Source of the DNA: Chloroflexota bacterium
GTDB lineage: Bacteria > Chloroflexota > Anaerolineae > Anaerolineales > Villigracilaceae
Length of the DNA: 64,000 nucleotides
Assembly (NCBI GenBank): GCA_023459215.1
Contig: JAEWVF010000018.1
Location: 70,243-134,242, forward strand
Direction of reading: 5' to 3'
Part shown: one piece after another, positions 10,478-51,316 of the stretch
Layout of the letters: the number at the start of each line of letters is the position of its first letter
Numbering within the stretch: the first letter of the stretch is position 1
Translations under genes and position numbers: made by a program
Notes under the pieces: model-generated
Told to the model about the DNA's origin: nothing
The model's input: only the letters and a program-made list of their open reading frames with translations
Databases searched by the model: none

Positions 10478-12280
10478 TTATGGGCGCGGAGTTGCGCTTG
10501 GCATTCGCGTTTGGGTGGGGGTGCGGGTCGGAGTGCGGGTGGCCGTCGGCGGGATGGGTGTGGCCGTGCGGAAGGCGTCGATGCTTGCCTGGGCTTCCTC
10601 GCGCATTTCATCGCTGACCGCTTCTTCGGGCAGCTCTAAAATCGCTTCCCAGTCGCGGATGGATTCGTTGGGGAAGCCGATCTTGCCCAACGAGATGGCC
10701 CGGTAATACAGGAAGATAGCGCGTTTCTCATCTGTATCGGCCAGCTTCTCATGTTTGATCAGTTCGGCGTAACCGTTGTTGTAATCTTCGTTGGCGTACA
10801 GGGCGCGCGTCAGGGCGACCCCGGCATCGAAGAAGTTCTGGTTATAACGCAGCGCGGCGCGCAGATCGCTGATGGCTTCTTCGACATTGCCCAACTCCAG
10901 GTTCGTTTCACCGCGCCAGTAATAGCCTTGCGAACTGGTGCGATCCAGGCTGAGCGCCTGATCCAATGCCTCCAGAGCCTTATCGTACTCGCCGCGGTTG
11001 AAGTAGGTCGCCCCAAGGAAGCTGAAGGCCTCAGCGTTCTCTTTGGAGTACAGGGTGTAAACTTCCAGCGCTTCGAGCGCTTTATCGGTTTCACCGTTGG
11101 CGCGATAAGCCATGCCGAGCACCAGGTAGCTTTCCAGGTTGACGATGTCCAACTCGTTGGCGTGGATGGCTGCTTCCAAGGCCTCGGGGTAATTCTCCTG
11201 GGCTAATTCCACCCGCGCCAGGGCAATGTAAACCTGGGGCGAGTCAGGCAGCAAGTTGCCGGCCTCGCGCAAATCTTCCATGGCGGCTTCGGTATTTCTT
11301 TGACTCAACTGGTACAAACCACGCTCCAGGAAAGCCTCGCCGTAATTTGGATCGAGATTGATCGCCGAGTCGAGATCTGCCATCACCGAACGGCGCGGAT
11401 TGATGGCCAGGTTTGTGCGCGCGCGGCCAAGATAACTGGGCGCAAAGTTGGGATTAACCTTGATCGCCTCCTGGTAATAATCCAGGGCATCCTGATAGCG
11501 TTCATCCAGGCGATATGCTTCGGCGATAAAGTAGAGTGTGTCCGCTGAACCGGGGCTGATGGTTGCCACCTGGATCATCATCTGGGCAACCATTTCCCAA
11601 TTTTCGTTCTCATAGGCCCGCATTGCGCCCCGATATGGGTCAAGCGCAACTCCTTCATAGGGCGTTGCCGCATAAATCGGGGTGGGTGTGTACGTTGCGT
11701 CAATCAGTCCGGCCAGCGGCCCGCGTTCCTGCACTTGCTGGGTCATATCGAGCGTAGCGGTCGGGAATGGCGTAAATGTCTGTTGTACCCGCCGGGTCGG
11801 TTCCGGGCGGAACAAACCAAAAACGCTGAACCCGGCGATCACGCCGCCAATCAACAAGCCGCCCATCAATAATAATGAAACAACCCTGACCATCGGGTTG
11901 GCCGCCAACGCCTTGAAACCGGTCGGCCTGGGGGTTTCATCGGCCAGCTTGAGCTTCGAATCCCAGGGACGCGGGTGATTCATCGGGAACGGGGATAGCC
12001 CCTCCGCCGGCGGCAAACCGCCCAGCAGGGTCAAACCGCGTCGCGCCGCCGCATTTTCGGGGTCGAGCTTCAGCGCAGTTTGCAGGCAATAGATGCGTTC
12101 TTTTTGCGTTTCCATGGCCGCGCTCAGCCAAACCCAATAAACCGCATTGTTCTGATCGGTTTTTAGCAGGCGGGTCAGCAGGTCACGAGCATCGGCAAAA
12201 TTCCCCTGCTCGATAAAGTCTACGGCCTTCTGGAACATCATTTCTTCGGCAGAAACTTCGGGCGTCAGCATCTCATCCAT
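10478..12280 (-). CDS. TPR-repeat protein with central TM segment and Pro/Thr-rich C-terminus
   Basis: Multiple 34-aa TPR-like repeats (A..Y..G..Y..A...A), hydrophobic segment, PT-rich tail. Confidence 0.75.
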   Translation of the reverse strand: MDEMLTPEVSAEEMMFQKAVDFIEQGNFADARDLLTRLLKTDQNNAVYWVWLSAAMETQKERIYCLQTALKLDPENAAARRGLTLLGGLPPAEGLSPFPMNHPRPWDSKLKLADETPRPTGFKALAANPMVRVVSLLLMGGLLIGGVIAGFSVFGLFRPEPTRRVQQTFTPFPTATLDMTQQVQERGPLAGLIDATYTPTPIYAATPYEGVALDPYRGAMRAYENENWEMVAQMMIQVATISPGSADTLYFIAEAYRLDERYQDALDYYQEAIKVNPNFAPSYLGRARTNLAINPRRSVMADLDSAINLDPNYGEAFLERGLYQLSQRNTEAAMEDLREAGNLLPDSPQVYIALARVELAQENYPEALEAAIHANELDIVNLESYLVLGMAYRANGETDKALEALEVYTLYSKENAEAFSFLGATYFNRGEYDKALEALDQALSLDRTSSQGYYWRGETNLELGNVEEAISDLRAALRYNQNFFDAGVALTRALYANEDYNNGYAELIKHEKLADTDEKRAIFLYYRAISLGKIGFPNESIRDWEAILELPEEAVSDEMREEAQASIDAFRTATPIPPTATRTPTRTPTQTRMPSATPRP

Positions 12281-39004: not shown

Positions 39005-39901
39005 CTATTGAATTGAAACAACAAATGTTGCGCCTCCGCGTTTGCCCACAAACCAGTATTGCCCACTTCCGTAAAATACCGGGATCATTCCACAACAATA
39101 TGCCATAGAGATTGAGTCAAATTCAGTCCCAATGATATTTTCGTCATACACCATATGAAATTTGCCGTTTTTCTTGGCGATGTAAATTAATTTGCCTTTG
39201 ATTTCATAGGGAAAATATGACCCTTCCAACTCATATTTTTCATTATAGTTTACGCCATCAACCACAATAACAGGTGTGAAGCCGCCTAGTTCCCACACTA
39301 ATTTTCCTTCGATGTTCCAAAACCTTACGTTTGGGTCATATGACGAAAAGACAGGAGACATTTTTAGAATCGCATCTCCGTTTTTTATTAACTGATAACT
39401 GCAACAATCCCTAGAAGTGACGTTCTTTGTTTCGAAATAATCATTTCCAATTGTTATTCGCCAATCACTAAAACTGCTTTTATTTTTTACTCGTTCGCCA
39501 ATCATCTTTTTGTCATTTTCATTGAAAGTTGGTATTTCAATACACTTTGCCAGAAAATCCATATCACTCCTAGCATACTTTTCATTTGGCACGACGCATT
39601 CCGACCATGTCAGTCCGTTATTTATGGGAATTACGGTGGGAGTACCTGAAAAAGAAAGTGCAGATGTTGGTATAAGAGTTTCTGTAAGATGCAATGGAGT
39701 GGCCGAAGGTATCAGCGTGGCAGTAGAAGTTGCTGTTGGAATTGCCGTTTGTGTTTCAGCAATTTCAGTTCCTGCAACGGCTAGGGCTGTTTCCATAACC
39801 TCTGTTAGTTGCGTTTTGACTGTTGGCCTAAAACTATTACAGGAAGTCAACATTACTAGAATCAGAGGTAATGAGATTATTCCCTTGCTAGCGATTTTCA
39901 T
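39005..39901 (-). CDS. Lipoprotein of unknown function encoded in a low-GC island
   Basis: Lipobox LTSC, Thr/Ser/Pro-rich linker, strongly AT-rich codon usage over 39100-39900 unlike flanks. Confidence 0.55.
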   Translation of the reverse strand: MKIASKGIISLPLILVMLTSCNSFRPTVKTQLTEVMETALAVAGTEIAETQTAIPTATSTATLIPSATPLHLTETLIPTSALSFSGTPTVIPINNGLTWSECVVPNEKYARSDMDFLAKCIEIPTFNENDKKMIGERVKNKSSFSDWRITIGNDYFETKNVTSRDCCSYQLIKNGDAILKMSPVFSSYDPNVRFWNIEGKLVWELGGFTPVIVVDGVNYNEKYELEGSYFPYEIKGKLIYIAKKNGKFHMVYDENIIGTEFDSISMAYCCGMIPVFYGSGQYWFVGKRGGATFVVSIQ

Positions 39902-44327: not shown

Positions 44328-45269
44328 ATGACGATTAAATATTCGATTATTGCCCCGATTTTCAACGAATTCGAAAACATTCCCGTGCTTTGGAAGCGGG
44401 TCAGCGAAGTGATGGATTCGACCGGCGAGCCTTGGGAGTTGATCCTGGTGGATGACGGTTCGAGCGACGGTTCGACTGATCGCATCCGCGAACTGGCGGC
44501 TGCCGAGCCGCGCGTGCGCCCGGTGATTTTTGCGCGCAATTTCGGCCACCAGATCGCTGTCACCGCCGGGATGGATTACAGCCGGGGCGAGGCGATTGTG
44601 GTCATCGATGCCGACCTGCAAGACCCGCCGGAAGTGATCCTTGAACTGGCCAAGAAATGGAAGGAAGGCTACGAGGTGGTTTACGCGGTGCGCTCGGAAC
44701 GCGAGGGCGAAAGCTGGTTCAAGCTGATGACGGCATCGTTGTTCTACCGCCTGATTTATCGCATTACGGATGTCAAAATTCCGCTTGATACCGGCGATTT
44801 CCGCCTGGTCGACCGCAAGGTGGTCGATGTGATGAACTCGATGCGCGAACGGCATCGTTTCCTGCGCGGCATGTCCTCCTGGATCGGGTTCAAGCAAATT
44901 GGGGTTGAGTACAAACGGGCGGCCAGGTTAAGCGGCGTTACCAAGTATCCGCTCAAGAAGATGCTCAAGTTTGCCCAGGATGGCATTACCGGTTTTTCGT
45001 ATTTCCCGCTGCAAATTGCCACTTACCTGGGCTTTTTTGCCGCCGGTTTGAGCGTCGTCGGCATTCCGTTGGTGATGATCCTGCGCCTGGCCGGGTCGCA
45101 TTTTTTCGAGGGTCAGACCACGACCCTGATCTCTGTTCTGTTTTTGGGCGGGGTGCAGTTGATTTCGCTGGGCATCCTGGGCGAGTACATCGGGCGTATC
45201 TATGACGAGGTTAAGGGTCGCCCCCTGTATGTGGTGCGCGATGCGCCCAAGATGGATGGCGAACAGTAA
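44328..45269 (+). CDS. Family 2 glycosyltransferase (polyprenol-phosphate glycosyltransferase-like)
   Basis: [21 protein letters not shown] motif, C-terminal TM helices. Confidence 0.8.
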
Positions 45270-45332
45270 ACGGTAACCAGAAAAATAGTATTCAGTAAGC
45301 AGGCCGGAAAACTTTCCCGGCCTGCTTTTTTA

Positions 45333-45710
45333 TTAACCACTGGTGATTTTTAAGGCGGTGTAGCGTTTTCGGCTGAACAAACCCATCAGGCCAAACAGGT
45401 GGAAGGCAATGCCATATTTTTTGATCATCAGTTTGCGGACCTGTTCAACCGCTGCGGGCGAATCGTCGCGGATGGCCTGGGCGGGGACCCAATCGCCGAG
45501 CAGATGCCCATCGCCGCGGCAGGGAGCGATGTTGACGCTGACGGGGGCCTCGCGACGGACGCGCTTGGCTTTGCCCGAGTCGGCTTGCGTCCAGATATAG
45601 AGCGCATTGCCCTCCTGCGCGAACCAGACCGGGGTTTTAATCCCCTGTCCATTTTTGCGGAAGGTTTCGAGGTTGAGATATTGTTGGTTTTGGAAGGTGG
45701 GGTAGGACAT
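45333..45710 (-). CDS. PPOX-class (pyridoxamine 5'-phosphate oxidase-like) FMN/F420-binding split-barrel protein
   Basis: 125 aa, PNPOx-like fold signature (RKNGQ..TPVWF). Confidence 0.55.
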   Translation of the reverse strand: MSYPTFQNQQYLNLETFRKNGQGIKTPVWFAQEGNALYIWTQADSGKAKRVRREAPVSVNIAPCRGDGHLLGDWVPAQAIRDDSPAAVEQVRKLMIKKYGIAFHLFGLMGLFSRKRYTALKITSG

Positions 45711-45742
45711 GAGGGGAACTCCGGGAAAGGGGATTGATATTA

Positions 45743-45789
45743 GATACTCGATATTCGTTATGATGTTTGATTAACGAATATCGAGTATC
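45743..45789. repeat. Perfect 18-bp inverted repeat (gatactcgatattcgtta / taacgaatatcgagtatc) with 11-nt spacer
   Basis: Read directly; related copy inserted inside P450 gene at 47276-47340. Confidence 0.8.
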
Positions 45790-45793
45790 GCTT

Positions 45794-46588
45794 TTACGGC
45801 AAGCCTTTGAAGCCACGCGCTTTCCAGGCAGCGAAGCGCTCCCAGCCGAGATTGGAGAGCATCAGGGTCATGCCGAAGCCGATTAAAACGCAGGTGATGA
45901 AGAAAAAGGCAACTTCTTCAATCGGCAGGATGCCGAAGAAGTTGATTCCCAACGTCTGGTCTTTCGAGATTTGCCAGGTGGTGGCGTTCAGGGCAACGAT
46001 GTCCATCAGCGACAGGTACAGACCGGGGGCGAAAATGGCCCAAAATACCAGTTTGCGGTAATGCCAGAGAATATCGGCTCCGAACAGGAATTGGGGAATG
46101 ATCGGCGGCAGCGCCCAGAAGAAGATGATGCCGAGATAGTTCCACTCATCGCCGGCGAAGAAGAACTGAACGGTGAAGAAGGCCCAGGCGGCGACAAGGA
46201 TTGCGGTTGACCAGTAAGCCAGTTTTGGGCTGCGCTGGAAGGTTTCAGGGGCGGGCAGGGTCAAGCGTTTGGCCAGGAACCACCACCACAGGCCGACCAT
46301 GATAGTTTCAACGATAAAGAACGTGTATTCTTCAATCGGGACGTAGCCAATCGTAATGCCGGTCACCAGCTCCGGGTTGTAGTACCAGACGCCGGTGGCG
46401 ACCAGGTAGTTGTCCCAGGGGGTGGTGTAGATCAGCGCGATGAGAACATGCGCGGCGATAATCAGCGGCACTTTTTTGGCGTCGAAGCCGGGGGTGGGGC
46501 GTCCGGCGCGCTTGTCCAGCCAGGTGATGAACAGCAGGACAAGGATGGGGATGAGTACGAAATAGGCGAGGAAGGCAAAGTAGGTCAT
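45794..46588 (-). CDS. crtYcd: Fused heterodimeric-type lycopene beta-cyclase (CrtYcd, two lycopene-cyclase domains)
   Basis: Two PxEE motifs (PIEEYTFF and PIEEVAFF), TPWDN motif, ~7 TM helices. Confidence 0.75.
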   Translation of the reverse strand: MTYFAFLAYFVLIPILVLLFITWLDKRAGRPTPGFDAKKVPLIIAAHVLIALIYTTPWDNYLVATGVWYYNPELVTGITIGYVPIEEYTFFIVETIMVGLWWWFLAKRLTLPAPETFQRSPKLAYWSTAILVAAWAFFTVQFFFAGDEWNYLGIIFFWALPPIIPQFLFGADILWHYRKLVFWAIFAPGLYLSLMDIVALNATTWQISKDQTLGINFFGILPIEEVAFFFITCVLIGFGMTLMLSNLGWERFAAWKARGFKGLP

Positions 46589-46595
46589 TGGGATT

Positions 46596-47963
46596 TCAGA
46601 TTTGAGATTTTTGATTGGGGGGTTGTCGGCGGGTAATTTTCATCAGCACGCCAGGGCGCGGCTCAAGGGTTGCGCCCATGTGCGGATGGATTTCGTGCGG
46701 GTTGATCGGCTGGAAGTCGAAGTTTTGCAGCAAATAGCTGACCACAATCCGCGCTTCGGCCTGGCCGAAGGCGGCCCCGATGCAGGCGCGCGGCCCACCG
46801 CCAAAGGCGATGAAACTCATGGGCGGGGGTGCCTGCCCTGCGCTTCCCTGCGGGGTGCGGCCTCGTGCGAAGCGCTCGGGCTGGAACTGGTCCGGGTTGT
46901 CCCAGATGGCCGGGTCGCGCTGGGTCAGGTAGATCGAGTAGAACATGCGCGCGCCAGCCGGAATGGTCTCGCCTTCGCCGAAGGTCACATCCTTGGCGAC
47001 CATGCGGTTGCCGATGTGGATCGGCGGATATAGGCGCAGGGATTCCTTGATGACCTGGTCGAGCAGCGGCGGATTTTGGCCGGGTTCGCTCTCGTCCAGG
47101 TCGCGGACGAGGGCGGCGTAAACGTCCGGGTGTTGGCCGAGCAGGGCAAAAATCCAGGCCAGCAGGGCGGTGGAGGTGTCGTGGCCGGCAATCAGCATGG
47201 TCAACATCTGATCGCGGATGGTTTTGTTGGGCAGGCCGGCATCGATCAGGTGTTGGAGCAGGTCGTTATTTGGGGATTCGATATTTGAGTCTTCGATATT
47301 GGAACCTCGAGTATTCGAATATCGAATATCGAGGTTCGCTTTCCGACGTTCAGCGATAATTTCATAGAGATAAGTATCCAGGGCTTGCAGGTGCTTTTTG
47401 TAGCCGGGGCGCGGGATGCGCCGCCACAAAATCCATGCGCCGGGTGAGATGTAGTCGATGGCTTTCAGGATCGGCGTCCAGATGCGTGGCAGGTCGTCCC
47501 AGGCGTCGCGGCTGAACAGGGCCTGGATGATGATCAGCAGGGCGATTTTGCGGCCCTCGACCAGCATATCCACCGTCTGACCGTCCTGCCAGGCCGCGCT
47601 GACCCGTTCGGTCTGTTGGCGCATCATCCCGGCGTAGCCGGGCAGCTTACCGGGATGCAGCGACGGTTCCATCAACTTGCGATATTGGTCGTGTTCTTCA
47701 CCGTCGGTGACGAGCACGCCCCGGTCGAGCAAATCCGTCACCGGGTCCTGGTTGCGCCACAGGAACTTATCCCGTTCGGTAATGAGCACCTTGCGCGCCG
47801 CATCCGGCCCGTAAACGATATAAGGTTTGAATCCCGGCAGCGGCACCTGGAAGAAACGCCCAACCCGCTCGGCCATCACGCGCAGCGGCCCAAGCGGGGA
47901 TTTTTCAGCGAGAAAGGCTTTCAGCACAGCCAGGCCGGTTTGGGGATCAGATTCAGCAGGCAT
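46596..47963 (-). CDS. Cytochrome P450 (carotenoid-cluster associated), carrying an in-frame ~20-aa repeat-encoded insertion
   Basis: FGGGPRACIG heme loop, ExxR; LDIRYSNTRGSNIEDSNIES inserted between ERR and DLLQ helices. Confidence 0.85.
   Translation of the reverse strand: MPAESDPQTGLAVLKAFLAEKSPLGPLRVMAERVGRFFQVPLPGFKPYIVYGPDAARKVLITERDKFLWRNQDPVTDLLDRGVLVTDGEEHDQYRKLMEPSLHPGKLPGYAGMMRQQTERVSAAWQDGQTVDMLVEGRKIALLIIIQALFSRDAWDDLPRIWTPILKAIDYISPGAWILWRRIPRPGYKKHLQALDTYLYEIIAERRKANLDIRYSNTRGSNIEDSNIESPNNDLLQHLIDAGLPNKTIRDQMLTMLIAGHDTSTALLAWIFALLGQHPDVYAALVRDLDESEPGQNPPLLDQVIKESLRLYPPIHIGNRMVAKDVTFGEGETIPAGARMFYSIYLTQRDPAIWDNPDQFQPERFARGRTPQGSAGQAPPPMSFIAFGGGPRACIGAAFGQAEARIVVSYLLQNFDFQPINPHEIHPHMGATLEPRPGVLMKITRRQPPNQKSQI
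47276..47340. repeat. Palindromic element copy (tcgatatt / cgaatatcga units) embedded in-frame in P450 CDS
   Basis: cctcgagtattcgaatatcgaatatcgagg; shares cgaatatcgag..cgcttt with 45772-45795. Confidence 0.7.
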
Positions 47964-48484: not shown

Positions 48485-48501
48485 ACGAAGACTGAAAACT
48501 T

Positions 48502-49917
48502 TCAGGGATTTATCCAGACGGGTGGAAAGAAAAGAATTCCATCTTTCATATTTATTTTGTTCATAATTGCCCGGGTTGAAATATCGACAATAAGTAGCCT
48601 ATCAAATTCTGAAAAATAAAAATACTTTGAGTCCGGACTCCATTTCCCTTGGTTTACCCTTGTGCCATTTCGAAAAATGATATTTCCATCCCAATCCCCG
48701 ATAACAAGTTCGTTTTCAATAGTTGCCCAAAAATTTTTGTCCGGAGAAATTATAGGCAAAGATTCGAGATATGGAGTTCTTAAAATTTCCCCGCTCGGAA
48801 AAATTTCCAAGGATGAAGAGTTCCATTGAGATGCTATAAAAGCCCCAATCTCTGGATACCAGGAAATTTCTCTTACAATATCGTCTGAAATTTTTTTAGG
48901 TTCCTGTCCAATTTCAAAAAGATATAATCCATCTTGTTGGTTTTCGTAGTTATTAAGTGTGCACAGGAGAAATTGCTTAGTCGAATTGCTATAAGCACCA
49001 GTAAAAAAGTTGCTGAATAAGAGTGTTGTTTCGCCTGAGTCGATATTGACAATATCCAAGCTAATATATTCACCGGGCAAAGCATAATAATAGCCGCTTA
49101 GGTAATTTGACATGTCAATCCAGCCAAATGTTTCTTCAATTCCATACACTTCCCAATCATAAAGTTTGCGGGTTTCTGAGCCGTCAGGTGCTGTTACCCA
49201 GACAGAGAGCATATCATATCCCCTGCCATTGGCCCCGAAATTAAGTTTTTTAGCGGCGCCGTGAACAATATAGCGTCCATCTGGTGTCCAACGTAATGAT
49301 ACTGCCTGGGTTAAGCCATCGGTCAGGCGCTTAATGTTATCATTTTCCATTGAATATACATAAACATCCGATGTTGGGCCATCTATGGACGCGGTAAAAG
49401 CCAAGTATTTTCCATCGGGCGACCATGCTAATTTTCCTAATGCCGAGAAAGTATCCATCAGTTCTGGCGGTTTGTTTTCAAGTGCTGGATATAAACCAGT
49501 TGTGATATATGTGATAGTTTTGTCTACGCCGGGAGTGATACGGATTTTTAAAGTAACATCTTTTGTCGGTGCTCCATTATTCTTGCTTTCGATATATGCA
49601 ATTACGTTGTTGAATGTTGCAATATCAAGTAAATAAAAATCTTTGGATTGTGCGGGTAGAAACGGTGAATATCCAGATCCATCTGGATTTATGATGAAAG
49701 GCATTATTCGATCAGGTATTAATACCCAAGAACCTGTTGTAGATACTGGTGTAATATCTGGGAATGATGGAGTAATTGTGGATGTTGCAGATGAAGAGTT
49801 GGCTATGATGGTTTCTTGTGGTTGAAAAACCGTTGTCACCGGGGTATTTTCTGTTGCCGGACCAGCACAACCTGCCAGCAGGAGAAGTAATCCGAAAATA
49901 TGGTTGAACTTTTTCAT
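48502..49917 (-). CDS. Lipoprotein with PD40/TolB-like beta-propeller repeats, low-GC island
   Basis: Lipobox LLAGC, S/T-rich linker, WSPDGKY / WTPDGRY / WSPDSKY repeats; AT-rich. Confidence 0.6.
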   Translation of the reverse strand: MKKFNHIFGLLLLLAGCAGPATENTPVTTVFQPQETIIANSSSATSTITPSFPDITPVSTTGSWVLIPDRIMPFIINPDGSGYSPFLPAQSKDFYLLDIATFNNVIAYIESKNNGAPTKDVTLKIRITPGVDKTITYITTGLYPALENKPPELMDTFSALGKLAWSPDGKYLAFTASIDGPTSDVYVYSMENDNIKRLTDGLTQAVSLRWTPDGRYIVHGAAKKLNFGANGRGYDMLSVWVTAPDGSETRKLYDWEVYGIEETFGWIDMSNYLSGYYYALPGEYISLDIVNIDSGETTLLFSNFFTGAYSNSTKQFLLCTLNNYENQQDGLYLFEIGQEPKKISDDIVREISWYPEIGAFIASQWNSSSLEIFPSGEILRTPYLESLPIISPDKNFWATIENELVIGDWDGNIIFRNGTRVNQGKWSPDSKYFYFSEFDRLLIVDISTRAIMNKINMKDGILFFPPVWINP

Positions 49918-49924
49918 GGTTTTT

Positions 49925-51316
<1,392 letters not shown>

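Follow-up and report, generated by a model that had tools for sequence, protein, structure and literature searches.

Heptanucleotide hairpin repeats in an Anaerolineales gene cluster and a probably repeat-encoded loop in its cytochrome P450

Introduction

Repeats of seven-nucleotide units are over-represented in some bacteria, and their origin, their spread to multiple sites and their function are open questions (PMC4692102, PMC4679880). As summarized in PMC4692102, citing Mazel 1990 and Mrazek 2007, heptameric simple sequence repeats (SSRs) include heptanucleotides known in heterocystous cyanobacteria as short tandemly repeated repetitive (STRR) sequences, and also the units GGGAATC and GGGGA(T/C)T found in Xanthomonas and Nostoc; the same paper cites Mrazek 2007 for replication slippage as the proposed source of the bacterial heptamer excess. 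Direct repeats of TAACTGA have been described in Beggiatoaceae, Cyanobacteria and Bacteroidetes (MacGregor 2015, PMC4679880). Here, we analyze heptamer repeats in a 64,000-nucleotide stretch of a Chloroflexota bacterium of the order Anaerolineales (assembly GCA_023459215.1, contig JAEWVF010000018.1, positions 70,243 to 134,242), hereafter called the window. Two elements are at issue: a palindrome in an intergenic spacer and a related segment inside a cytochrome P450 gene. Text searches of the literature for heptamer repeats in Anaerolineae or Chloroflexi found no report.

Other small repeats invite comparison. Rickettsia palindromic elements are ~100–150 bp long, with a defined consensus, and are not known to consist of tandem short units, and their host is an intracellular alpha-proteobacterium; Ogata et al. 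(2000) reportedly found them in frame in protein genes, at surface-exposed segments, as well as between genes. The small dispersed repeats (SDRs) of Nostoc and Anabaena, said to have been described by Elhai et al. (2008), are reportedly hairpin-forming sequences of 21–27 nt, regarded as mobile although no enzyme for this is known, and sometimes found in tandem heptamer arrays. The neuO gene of E. coli K1 carries a heptanucleotide variable number tandem repeat (VNTR) in its 5' coding region, whose long perfect arrays slip and cause on/off phase variation. Repetitive extragenic palindromic (REP) sequences and REPINs are dispersed palindromes of 20–40 bp at gene ends in operons, for which mRNA 3'-end protection or termination has been proposed; REPs lie outside genes, are rich in G+C, bear a GTAG or CGTC tetranucleotide on one side and are associated with the gene of a RAYT transposase, which is IS200/IS605-like (PMC3116915, PMC3733652). 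Rickettsia palindromic elements are also mentioned in PMC1779305 and PMC10969869.

The original prediction for this DNA held that the palindrome looks like a small mobile element, similar to a MITE (miniature inverted-repeat transposable element) or a REP, tolerated as a protein insertion. We consider a different reading probable: the two elements belong to a family of dispersed, small TCGATAT/ATATCGA hairpin repeats, one of a limited number of heptanucleotide families in Anaerolineales, and the P450 insert is an old repeat-encoded loop.

Two elements built from one heptamer

Judged from their sequences, both elements are head-to-head arrays that pair TCGATAT, a heptanucleotide, with the complementary unit ATATCGA. 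The intergenic palindrome is as first described: its arms (45743–45760 and 45772–45789) are 18 nt each, 100% complementary and 11 nt apart, and the plus strand reads GATACTCGATATTCGTTA-tgatgtttgat-TAACGAATATCGAGTATC. The arms resolve into the units GATACTC-GATATTC-G...C-GAATATC-GAGTATC, the same as those of the P450 insert. This is the longest perfect inverted repeat of the window, and by our own arithmetic an 18-bp repeat of this kind would arise by chance ~1e-4 times per window. On the transcribed (minus) strand, the hairpin folds with −25 kcal/mol (z = −8.2); it lies 4 nt past the stop codon of a lycopene-cyclase-like gene and 32 nt ahead of the ATG of a 125-aa open reading frame (ORF), with a GGAG ribosome-binding site located between the hairpin and that ATG.

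The related sequence proposed inside the P450 gene is borne out by the comparison. Positions 45766–45794 and 47314–47342 match at 83% across 29 nt, and the 20-mer CGAATATCGAGKWTCGCTTT has just two matches in the window, one in each element, against an expectation of 0.01. Related sequence extends over 47276–47342 of the P450 ORF. On the coding strand, the insert reads AAC C-TCGATAT-TCGATAT-TCGAATA-CTCGAGG TTCC-AATATCGA-AGACTCA-AATATCGA-ATCC. At up to one mismatch, TCGATATTCG has 10 matches in the window (3.8 expected), six of which fall within the two elements. Tandem Repeats Finder (TRF), used at a low score threshold for the window arrays, detected period 7 at 47315–47332 in the P450 insert, with ~2.5–2.6 perfect units, and the P450 loop DNA combines 7-nt periodicity with a hairpin z of −6.1. 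Stricter scans of the window for periodicity (at least three units with up to two mismatches; 80% self-match over four units) returned nothing, as the arrays are short and imperfect.

Pattern searches of the 64-kb window revealed no family copies beyond the intergenic and P450 ones. An Rfam search of 45200–47600 yielded no family for either element, its sole match being a sub-threshold sRNA at 45295–45385; a plasmid BLAST with the intergenic element gave no match, and a scan of 45200–46700 detected neither a promoter nor a terminator at the hairpin.

The P450 insert as an old loop

In the P450 protein the insert reads ...IIAERR-KANLDIRYSNTRGSNIEDSNIESPNN-DLLQHLIDAGL..., so that 26 residues separate the invariant R207 from D234. 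Two comparison sets were used, namely 36 aligned orthologs and 66 orthologous loops taken from GTDB genomes. Across orthologs, the R207–D234 stretch ranges from six residues (QSPAQP, IGAFEP) to more than 60. Since the shortest orthologs hold six residues where the window P450 holds 26, the alignment confirms the in-frame insertion of ~20 aa that the original prediction had called for. The insertion is not recent, because the same segment (LDIRYS...SNIE) is common to orthologs at 71–88% identity (P0002, 3, 5, 7–11, 17, 25; L007, L008, L016). The alternative against which the original prediction had been set, an ancestral loop without other copies of the repeat, is thus half of what was found: the loop is shared by these orthologs, and other copies do exist.

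In the AlphaFold model of the P450, of moderate quality overall (mean pLDDT, the predicted local distance difference test, 63) and good around the insert, the insert forms the end of a long G helix (188–218) followed by a coil (218–230) with pLDDT below 50, ahead of the H and I helices. This placement identifies the insert as part of the G–H surface loop. The G–H loop is a known variable region of P450s. The identical P450 protein is encoded on four contigs, among them a metagenome scaffold from ENA (185 kb) and an independent Logan contig; its recovery from independent assemblies indicates that the insert is not an assembly artifact. The insert is probably a functionally neutral extension of the G–H loop by ~20 polar residues. 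Translational bypass or excision of the insert was dropped as a candidate, as the segment is in frame and stop-free and its peptide is kept among orthologs.

An ordinary ancestral variable loop, resembling the intergenic palindrome by chance, would fit both the variability of G–H loops and the sharing of the segment by many orthologs. The coincidence is refuted, however, by the expectation of 0.01 for the shared 20-mer, by the 7-nt periodicity, with its hairpin z of −6.1, and by the recurrence of the unit at many other sites, which leaves this explanation with next to no probability.

The P450 carries a second in-frame indel at window ~46821–46856 (residues ~370–381), directly upstream of the heme-binding loop. 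The window peptide there is GRTPQGSAGQAPPPMS, encoded by a G+C-rich segment that is not 7-periodic, and 63 of 73 orthologs have GRKTPPMS at this position; L011 has a peptide of equal length and very different sequence, TPPTLAPPARAGV.

Turnover of repeat families at fixed sites

The P450 loop is a site at which repeat families replace one another. Across the 66 orthologs it either is short or is encoded by one of at least eight heptamer families, with peptides such as SNLKPDTSHRTP, AITNHQLPIT, RLTVDR...PSSTVHRP, NVERSTLNVQ, YEVRDTQYA and EWKVESGK and units that include ACCTGAC, ATTACCA/ATCACCA, TGGACGG/CCGTCCA, AACGTTS, ATACGCA and AGTGGAA. In almost all extended loops, period-7 autocorrelation is 0.45–0.80 and seven is the best period. 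In-gene arrays alter their length in frame-compatible steps of 15 or 21 nt: P0007 (SNIEYSNTEYSNIEYSNTES) and P0025 have amplified the 15-nt super-unit of the window, with extra SNIEY/SNIEL units, and loops of the ITNxQLP type vary in 21-nt steps.

A unit length not divisible by three, placed within a coding sequence, also suggests a phase-variation switch, in which 7-nt slippage would toggle the P450 on/off as neuO is toggled in E. coli K1, and locus L022 carries two in-frame stops in the tract. Only ~2.5–2.6 perfect units are present, however, and in-gene arrays hold 15-nt and 21-nt super-units that keep the frame. L022 is also a long-read metagenome-assembled genome (MAG), in which indel errors are likely, and the P450 loop is in frame in all orthologs other than L022. 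A switch of this type is extremely unlikely. In L022 itself, the loop occupies 10610–10675 with both flanks in frame, and the conserved DRR motif can be read in no frame but +1; the stops probably stem from two indel errors within this tract of repeats, although a real frameshifted allele could be involved.

The intergenic spacer has a comparable history, as seen when spacers are read with both flanking genes aligned. L003, a locus conspecific with the window, has the same hairpin with two substitutions, one of which, A to G, keeps a G-U pair on the transcribed strand. In L016 the right arm of the hairpin has grown to (CGAATAT)5. L007 combines TCGATAT units with (AATACCG)5 at this site, and L009 has a hairpin of the ATTACCA family, GTAATTGGTAATTGG...CCAATTACCAATTAC, with z = −8.6; the site holds a degenerate ATTACCA-like sequence in L017 and (TTACTGA/TCACTGA)n in L029 and L063. 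The hairpin is missing in L017 and L007, and the spacer is free of any repeat in L010, at 31 nt, and in L023, at 28 nt. Alignment of filled sites (window, L016, L007, L009) with empty ones (L010, L023) revealed no target-site duplication, and none was seen at the borders of the P450 insert. On the evidence of these alignments, the spacer is an old repeat-hosting site.

A third array lies at the junction of the P450 and cyclase genes, so that three repeat-hosting sites (intergenic spacer, P450 loop, P450/cyclase junction) fall within 2.5 kb. Read on the minus strand (46616–46589), it encodes the C-terminal tail of the P450 (NQKSQI) and the TGA stop; the repeat site is just upstream of the cyclase ATG (given as 7 nt), and the array runs up to that ATG. 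No Shine–Dalgarno sequence is present at this junction. Orthologs have AATCTAA, AATCACA or TCTCTAA arrays here and very variable C-terminal tails. At the opposite end of the gene, two copies of TGAAACCTGACACA span the P450 start (MKPDTS...) at L008 9976–10004 and L009 1964–1990; they belong to the ACCTGAC family, as does the loop cassette of L003 (NLKPDTSH). An ACCTGAC array at the 5' end of the P450 could have been the donor for the loop cassette, or the reverse.

The comparison of spacers bears on two regulatory explanations. In one, a dimeric regulator, for instance the MerR/B12-binding, CarH/LitR-like protein of the cluster, has its operator in the intergenic palindrome, whose similarity to the P450 segment is incidental. 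Such a role would suit a dyad that is perfect over 18 bp and whose cluster includes a MerR-B12 regulator, a photolyase and carotenoid genes, and TATCGATATTCGATA flanks a TTGACA...TATACT promoter in the manner of an operator in unrelated gut-metagenome contigs. Yet a stop codon precedes the dyad and a ribosome-binding site follows it, promoter-like hexamers are missing from the vicinity, the same element occurs within coding sequences and unrelated operons, and the orthologous site holds unrelated heptamers or nothing, though the MerR-B12 gene persists in the two related loci whose neighbors were listed. We regard an operator as very unlikely.

In the other, the hairpins are kept by selection for RNA structure, as intercistronic terminators, attenuators or mRNA-stabilizing stem-loops, and the heptamers are secondary. 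The strong stem-loop just past the cyclase stop codon, the hairpin potential that L009 retains at the same site with another sequence, the G-U pair preserved in L003 and the enrichment of hairpins directly after ORF ends (see below) are all in its favor. However, no U-tract follows on the transcribed strand and the terminator scan was negative, the site is empty or hairpin-less in L010, L023, L017 and L007, and many arrays are direct only. The coding copies are no more favorable: in 25 of 30 P450 loops (p = 2e-5), the antisense strand forms the more stable structure, with a mean difference of 6 kcal/mol between the strands. This is the opposite of the asymmetry expected, so that selection for an mRNA hairpin in these copies was rejected. 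The sense strands of the loop DNA (30 loci) are A/C-rich, and the antisense bias probably arises because polar residues are encoded here by A/C-rich codons. Selection for RNA structure as the main cause is improbable, and the negative promoter/terminator scan downgrades the operator and terminator readings alike. As a secondary role, by analogy, the stem-loop at the cyclase cistron's 3' end may act as a REP-like 3'-end protector or a partial barrier, and is perhaps incidental.

Cassette difference between the window and L003

Over 16 kb, the window and L003 are ~98% identical (0–15 differences per 250 nt), with two exceptions: a gene replacement at ~48500–50000 and a block of ~100 nt in the P450 gene (Table 1). 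In L003, the P450 block holds an ACCTGAC-type cassette, SNLKPDTSHRTP, that replaces the TCGATAT type. The synonymous changes in the flanking codons are ATT/ATC, GCT/GCC, GAA/GAG, CGT/CGG and CGG/CGC on the left and CTG/CTT and CTC/CTG on the right. Within the block, the window is 83–88% identical to L016, and the L003 and L013 cassettes are identical at 33/39 by our own count. Both P450 alleles recur in several independent assemblies. Because the divergent block reaches into the flanking codons with clustered synonymous changes, we read it as a recombination patch rather than a clean insertion or excision. The pattern of differences is the mark that homologous recombination of a short patch leaves between diverged alleles, and not one of transposition.

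At the other exception, the window has a minus-strand ORF (48502–50175) of low G+C content (44.7%) that encodes a beta-propeller of the PD40/Tricorn-like type, and L003 has a 180-aa DUF3267 gene; this strain-specific replacement lies between the photolyase and the GNAT gene.

Stop codons and coding capacity

A tandem heptamer yields one cyclic 7-residue peptide in all three frames. TCGATAT encodes SIFDIRY and its complement ISNIEYR, with no stop on either strand, which means that a complete hairpin fits a reading frame provided that its length is a multiple of three; CCGTCCA/TGGACGG is likewise stop-free on both strands. Both of these families form in-frame hairpins, with loop z values of −6.1 (window), −6.4 (L007) and −4.3 (L080). 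For ATTACCA and ACCTGAC one of the two strands contains a stop, and their coding occurrences are only direct, non-folding arrays. An ATTACCA hairpin does form where stops are irrelevant, at the intergenic site of L009.

Dispersal to other loci and proteins

Period-7 excess: a set of 1.40 Mb of Anaerolineales DNA was assembled from the window and from loci obtained by genome and contig look-ups, 80 of these from GTDB genomes. In TRF runs on this set, period 7 was the commonest, with 131 arrays against 23 in shuffles that do not keep codon structure, while periods 8, 10, 11 and 13 were at most ~2-fold enriched and period 14, twice seven, ~4-fold. The repertoire of period-7 units is restricted (AATTACC 18, AAAGAAG 7, AATATCG 6, ACACCTG 5), and inverted partners are frequent, lying no more than 90 nt away for 22% of the period-7 arrays (controls, 1.4%). 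Besides TCGATAT, the families at Anaerolineales loci include ATTACCA, ACCTGAC, CCGTCCA, AACGTTS and ATACGCA. Ten-mers of the TCGATAT array gave 116 matches in the 1.40 Mb (~19 expected), and their 12 clusters are confined to the clade of the window, that is, the window and five related loci. Further palindromes were found at L016 7245–7318 (25-bp arms, own reading), L016 17539–17614 and L013 4064–4103 (42 nt, own reading).

Metagenome contigs: scanning with the pattern TCGATATTCG-N(0–30)-CGAATATCGA gave at least 120 loci. Among the matches listed there are 42 distinct heptamer-rich hairpins; 43% of hairpins lie within 45 nt past an ORF end (9% of random positions) and 36% lie inside ORFs (69% in controls). 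Period 7 again dominates in 442 kb of the listed loci, with 109 arrays. In L098, the element lies 1 nt past a thiolase stop codon and 17 nt ahead of the next ATG, and it has 21 nt identical to the window copy (CGAATATCGAGTATCGCTTTT), including the tail singled out at the outset. This AGCGATAC...GTATCGCT tail recurs in L098, L113, L195 and L157 but is not general among the listed copies. The outer ends of 81 arms among the matches listed have no conserved terminus beyond the repeat unit. A REP-type GTAG/CGTC tag, at which no search was aimed, was not noticed in the 81 listed flanks; the window arms start GATAC.../...GTATC.

The listed matches also include a set that was set aside. In 45 of the at least 120 loci (group A), the match belongs to a highly conserved and unrelated gut-bacterial promoter with TATCGATATTCGATA operators, a case of convergence with the window motif and not of homology. 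The promoter (e.g., L087 6207–6250 and L106 1665–1708) reads TTGACAATA-TCGATATTCGATA-(A/G)TATACT...AATATCGAATATCGATA and then AAAGGAGG; two TATCGATATTCGATA dyads flank its −35/−10 region in the manner of operators, and several of the contigs are labeled human gut metagenome.

Other proteins with in-frame copies: the fused CydDC ABC exporter of L177 (7080–10448) carries two, ...DDTRHSIFDTRYSNIELS... and ...KNDIRYSLNDTRISNIEF..., in the linkers between its transmembrane domains (TMDs) and nucleotide-binding domains (NBDs), and further copies are found in the CydDC linker of L166 and L191 and in a CarA-like protein. CydC homologues (P0126–P0245) are annotated as Anaerolineales. In Anaerolineales CydC and CydDC, the TMD–NBD linker measures 19–57 residues and is made of DIRYS..RISNIE, SVISEQ..PITNYQ, KEGRxE or other families, with up to six SEQLSV units in tandem. 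By its linker sequences, CydC/CydDC is a second protein family with a repeat-hosting site open to several families. In the phytoene desaturase CrtI (L036, L040, L062, L069, L080, L082), NAPVK is followed at mid-protein by LNVERSTFN (AACGTTS), KMKEERGK (AAAGAAG) or LKVAGSKVEG (GGTTGAA). Among the 80 loci, the photolyase has an in-frame heptamer site with the variants ..PITNY.., RNSYLVTRN and YAVRNTQY.

The photolyase gene of the window (minus strand) has an ATTACCA-like array at 50688–50709, which is TGGTAAT ×3.1 on the plus strand and encodes ..KLPINDYHETRN; about ten orthologous photolyases have (L/S)PITNY from clearer ATTACCA arrays at the same position, before a conserved Y..RN motif. Elsewhere in the window, TTAACTGATAACTGC at 39388–39402 consists of two TAACTGA units in a stretch of lower G+C content.

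Origin and spread

Two separate transpositions of a MITE- or REP-like palindrome whose ends are defined, one to the spacer and one in frame to the P450, would account for a dispersed family with near-identical arms at unrelated sites, for presence and absence at orthologous sites and for in-frame copies in several unrelated proteins. It does not sit well with the lack of a target-site duplication and of a fixed length, the arms varying by 7-nt units at one site, or with the lack of a terminal sequence distinct from the repeat unit. In addition, the P450 copy is common to orthologs down to 71% identity, both sites host unrelated heptamer families elsewhere, and the repeat polymorphism that separates near-identical genomes takes the form of a recombination patch, with neither insertion nor excision involved. 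Transposition of a defined element is thus unlikely. Of the mobile palindrome first proposed, the dispersed family and the tolerance of in-frame copies stand; no support was found for a unit of fixed structure, for a target-site duplication or for a recent insertion.

Changes in unit number, in-frame super-units, family turnover at fixed sites, dispersal of one family to many unrelated sites, a stop-codon filter on architecture, a concentration at gene ends and the recombinational exchange of alleles are all observed. A mechanism that would join them starts with arrays growing via replication slippage, and palindromes may arise and be kept via intra-strand template switching. New sites would be seeded by the copying of existing arrays, through gene conversion or some mobility of small repeats, with no transposase. 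Copies would then survive solely in permissive places, so that heptamer repeats would be expected to persist only where they are tolerated, namely after stops and before starts in operons, at gene junctions, in disordered loops and in interdomain linkers.

Several points weigh against the interpretation as dispersed heptamer hairpins with an old P450 loop. All 80 comparison loci center on the same P450. Part of the period-7 excess may therefore come from this neighborhood and from orthologous sites that were counted more than once, and the shuffled controls lack codon structure. The cues to the direction of the window/L003 exchange conflict: the P450 tree nests L003 in the TCGATAT clade, yet P0004 and P0006 share the L003 type. 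Among the metagenome contigs with hairpins, only the CydC case is linked to Anaerolineales; exact-sequence look-ups of proteins encoded beside the metagenome copies gave no taxonomic assignment. The 21-nt identity between L098 and the window argues for copying and does not separate gene conversion from true mobility, and the missing U-tract of the intergenic hairpin also counts here.

A bolder proposal goes beyond a family of dispersed repeats. The heptamer hairpins might be an undescribed class of very small Anaerolineales elements, assembled from few heptanucleotide units, actively copied by a transposase-independent mechanism and colonizing gene junctions and, where the unit has no stop, protein loops and linkers, in which case the hypervariable segments of otherwise conserved enzymes (P450 G–H loop, CydC linker, CrtI, photolyase) would behave like cassettes exchanged among strains by recombination. 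We put this forward tentatively, as a possibility that is somewhat doubtful at present.

Feature coordinates and gene neighborhood

The elements lie in a light/carotenoid cluster on the minus strand, which comprises a MerR/B12-binding regulator, a photolyase, a GNAT acetyltransferase, the P450, the lycopene-cyclase-like gene and the 125-aa ORF. The phytoene synthase and phytoene desaturase of the cluster are seen in the relative locus L006. The close homologues of the P450 are all annotated as Anaerolineales or Anaerolineae MAGs.

Table 1. Positions of the repeats and their host genes in the window
Feature	Position	Strand	Remarks
125-aa ORF	45333..45710	-	downstream of the intergenic hairpin
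Intergenic hairpin	45743..45789	-	TCGATAT-type units, 18-bp perfect arms and 11-nt loop; syntenic in L003, L016 and L007, with differing unit number
Lycopene-cyclase-like membrane protein gene	45794..46588	-	264 aa; weak match to PF18916; between the two elements
Third heptamer array of the operon	46589..46616	-	AATCAAA AATCTCA AATCTGA AATCCCA; TRF period 7 at 46588-46610
Cytochrome P450 gene, host of the insert	46596..47963	-	455 aa, PF00067 E = 1.7e-61; intact, with I-helix AGHDTS and heme loop FGGGPRACIG
Block of window/L003 difference	47256..47358	-	whole repeat cassette and flanking codons with clustered synonymous changes
15-nt (7+8) super-unit in the P450 insert	47263-47300	-	TRF
In-frame repeat-encoded insert	47265..47342	-	residues 208-233, KANLDIRYSNTRGSNIEDSNIESPNN; starts (TCGATAT)n, ends in ATATCGA units
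Hairpin inside the P450 insert	47303-47336	-	internal hairpin

Implications

The locus is a clean comparative system, with three sites in 2.5 kb, dozens of ortholog genomes that are empty, filled or filled differently, and a cassette swap within a species. It illustrates that repeats whose unit length is not divisible by three can inhabit enzymes if they are stop-free, via super-units of 15 or 21 nt. For annotation, heptamer segments look like odd low-complexity inserts, and in protein-family alignments of MAG data they add spurious variable regions. For protein evolution, they illustrate the origin of new disordered loops.

Comparison with known repeat systems

The closest described systems are themselves heptameric. 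As in the STRR sequences and other heptameric SSRs, the 7-nt tandem units are over-represented relative to other lengths, are mostly intergenic, lie between the same genes in related genomes and vary in length and sequence (PMC4692102); occasional inverted arrangements able to form stem-loops are reported there as well (PMC4692102). Here, however, the host belongs to the Chloroflexota, order Anaerolineales, inverted arrays are frequent (22%) and many copies are translated in enzymes. The heptamers described here contain A/T and are not G-rich, so that no quadruplex is expected.

The TAACTGA repeats resemble the present ones in several respects. Each lineage has a favored heptamer, theirs occurring as 2–6 units just ahead of start codons or overlapping stops; stop-codon content sets the allowed orientation in ORFs; translated copies, rare in their case (LSVISYQ), lie at protein peripheries; and horizontal or intragenomic spread without a known mechanism is suspected (PMC4679880). 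Theirs are essentially direct, with one indirect case in 170 sets, and have stops in all forward frames (PMC4679880), whereas the TCGATAT family typically forms hairpins and has no stop on either strand. Several families here, furthermore, coexist and replace each other at one site.

Likeness to the remaining systems is more partial. With REP and REPIN sequences the repeats have in common a short palindrome (18-bp stem) that is dispersed in relatives and metagenomes, but the stems here are A/T-rich and copies occur within genes (P450, CydDC linkers, CarA-like protein). With the Rickettsia palindromic elements they share a palindromic repeat in frame at tolerated surface positions (P450, CydC linkers); the present ones measure 47–78 nt, are built of 7-nt units, come from Anaerolineales and have no evident sequence relationship to them. 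The SDRs are reportedly units of fixed sequence inserted in heptamer arrays, while here the hairpin arms are heptamer arrays. Translated heptanucleotide repeats in which three units make seven residues recall the neuO VNTR, from which these short, degenerate arrays with in-frame super-units differ.

By analogy, we file the TCGATAT repeats as a candidate Chloroflexota counterpart of the cyanobacterial STRR and of the TAACTGA repeats, with a tolerance in proteins like that of the Rickettsia palindromic elements. What is new relative to these known repeats is the phylum, hairpin arms that are heptamer arrays, families that compete for sites, the frequency of translated copies in enzyme loops and a documented cassette swap.

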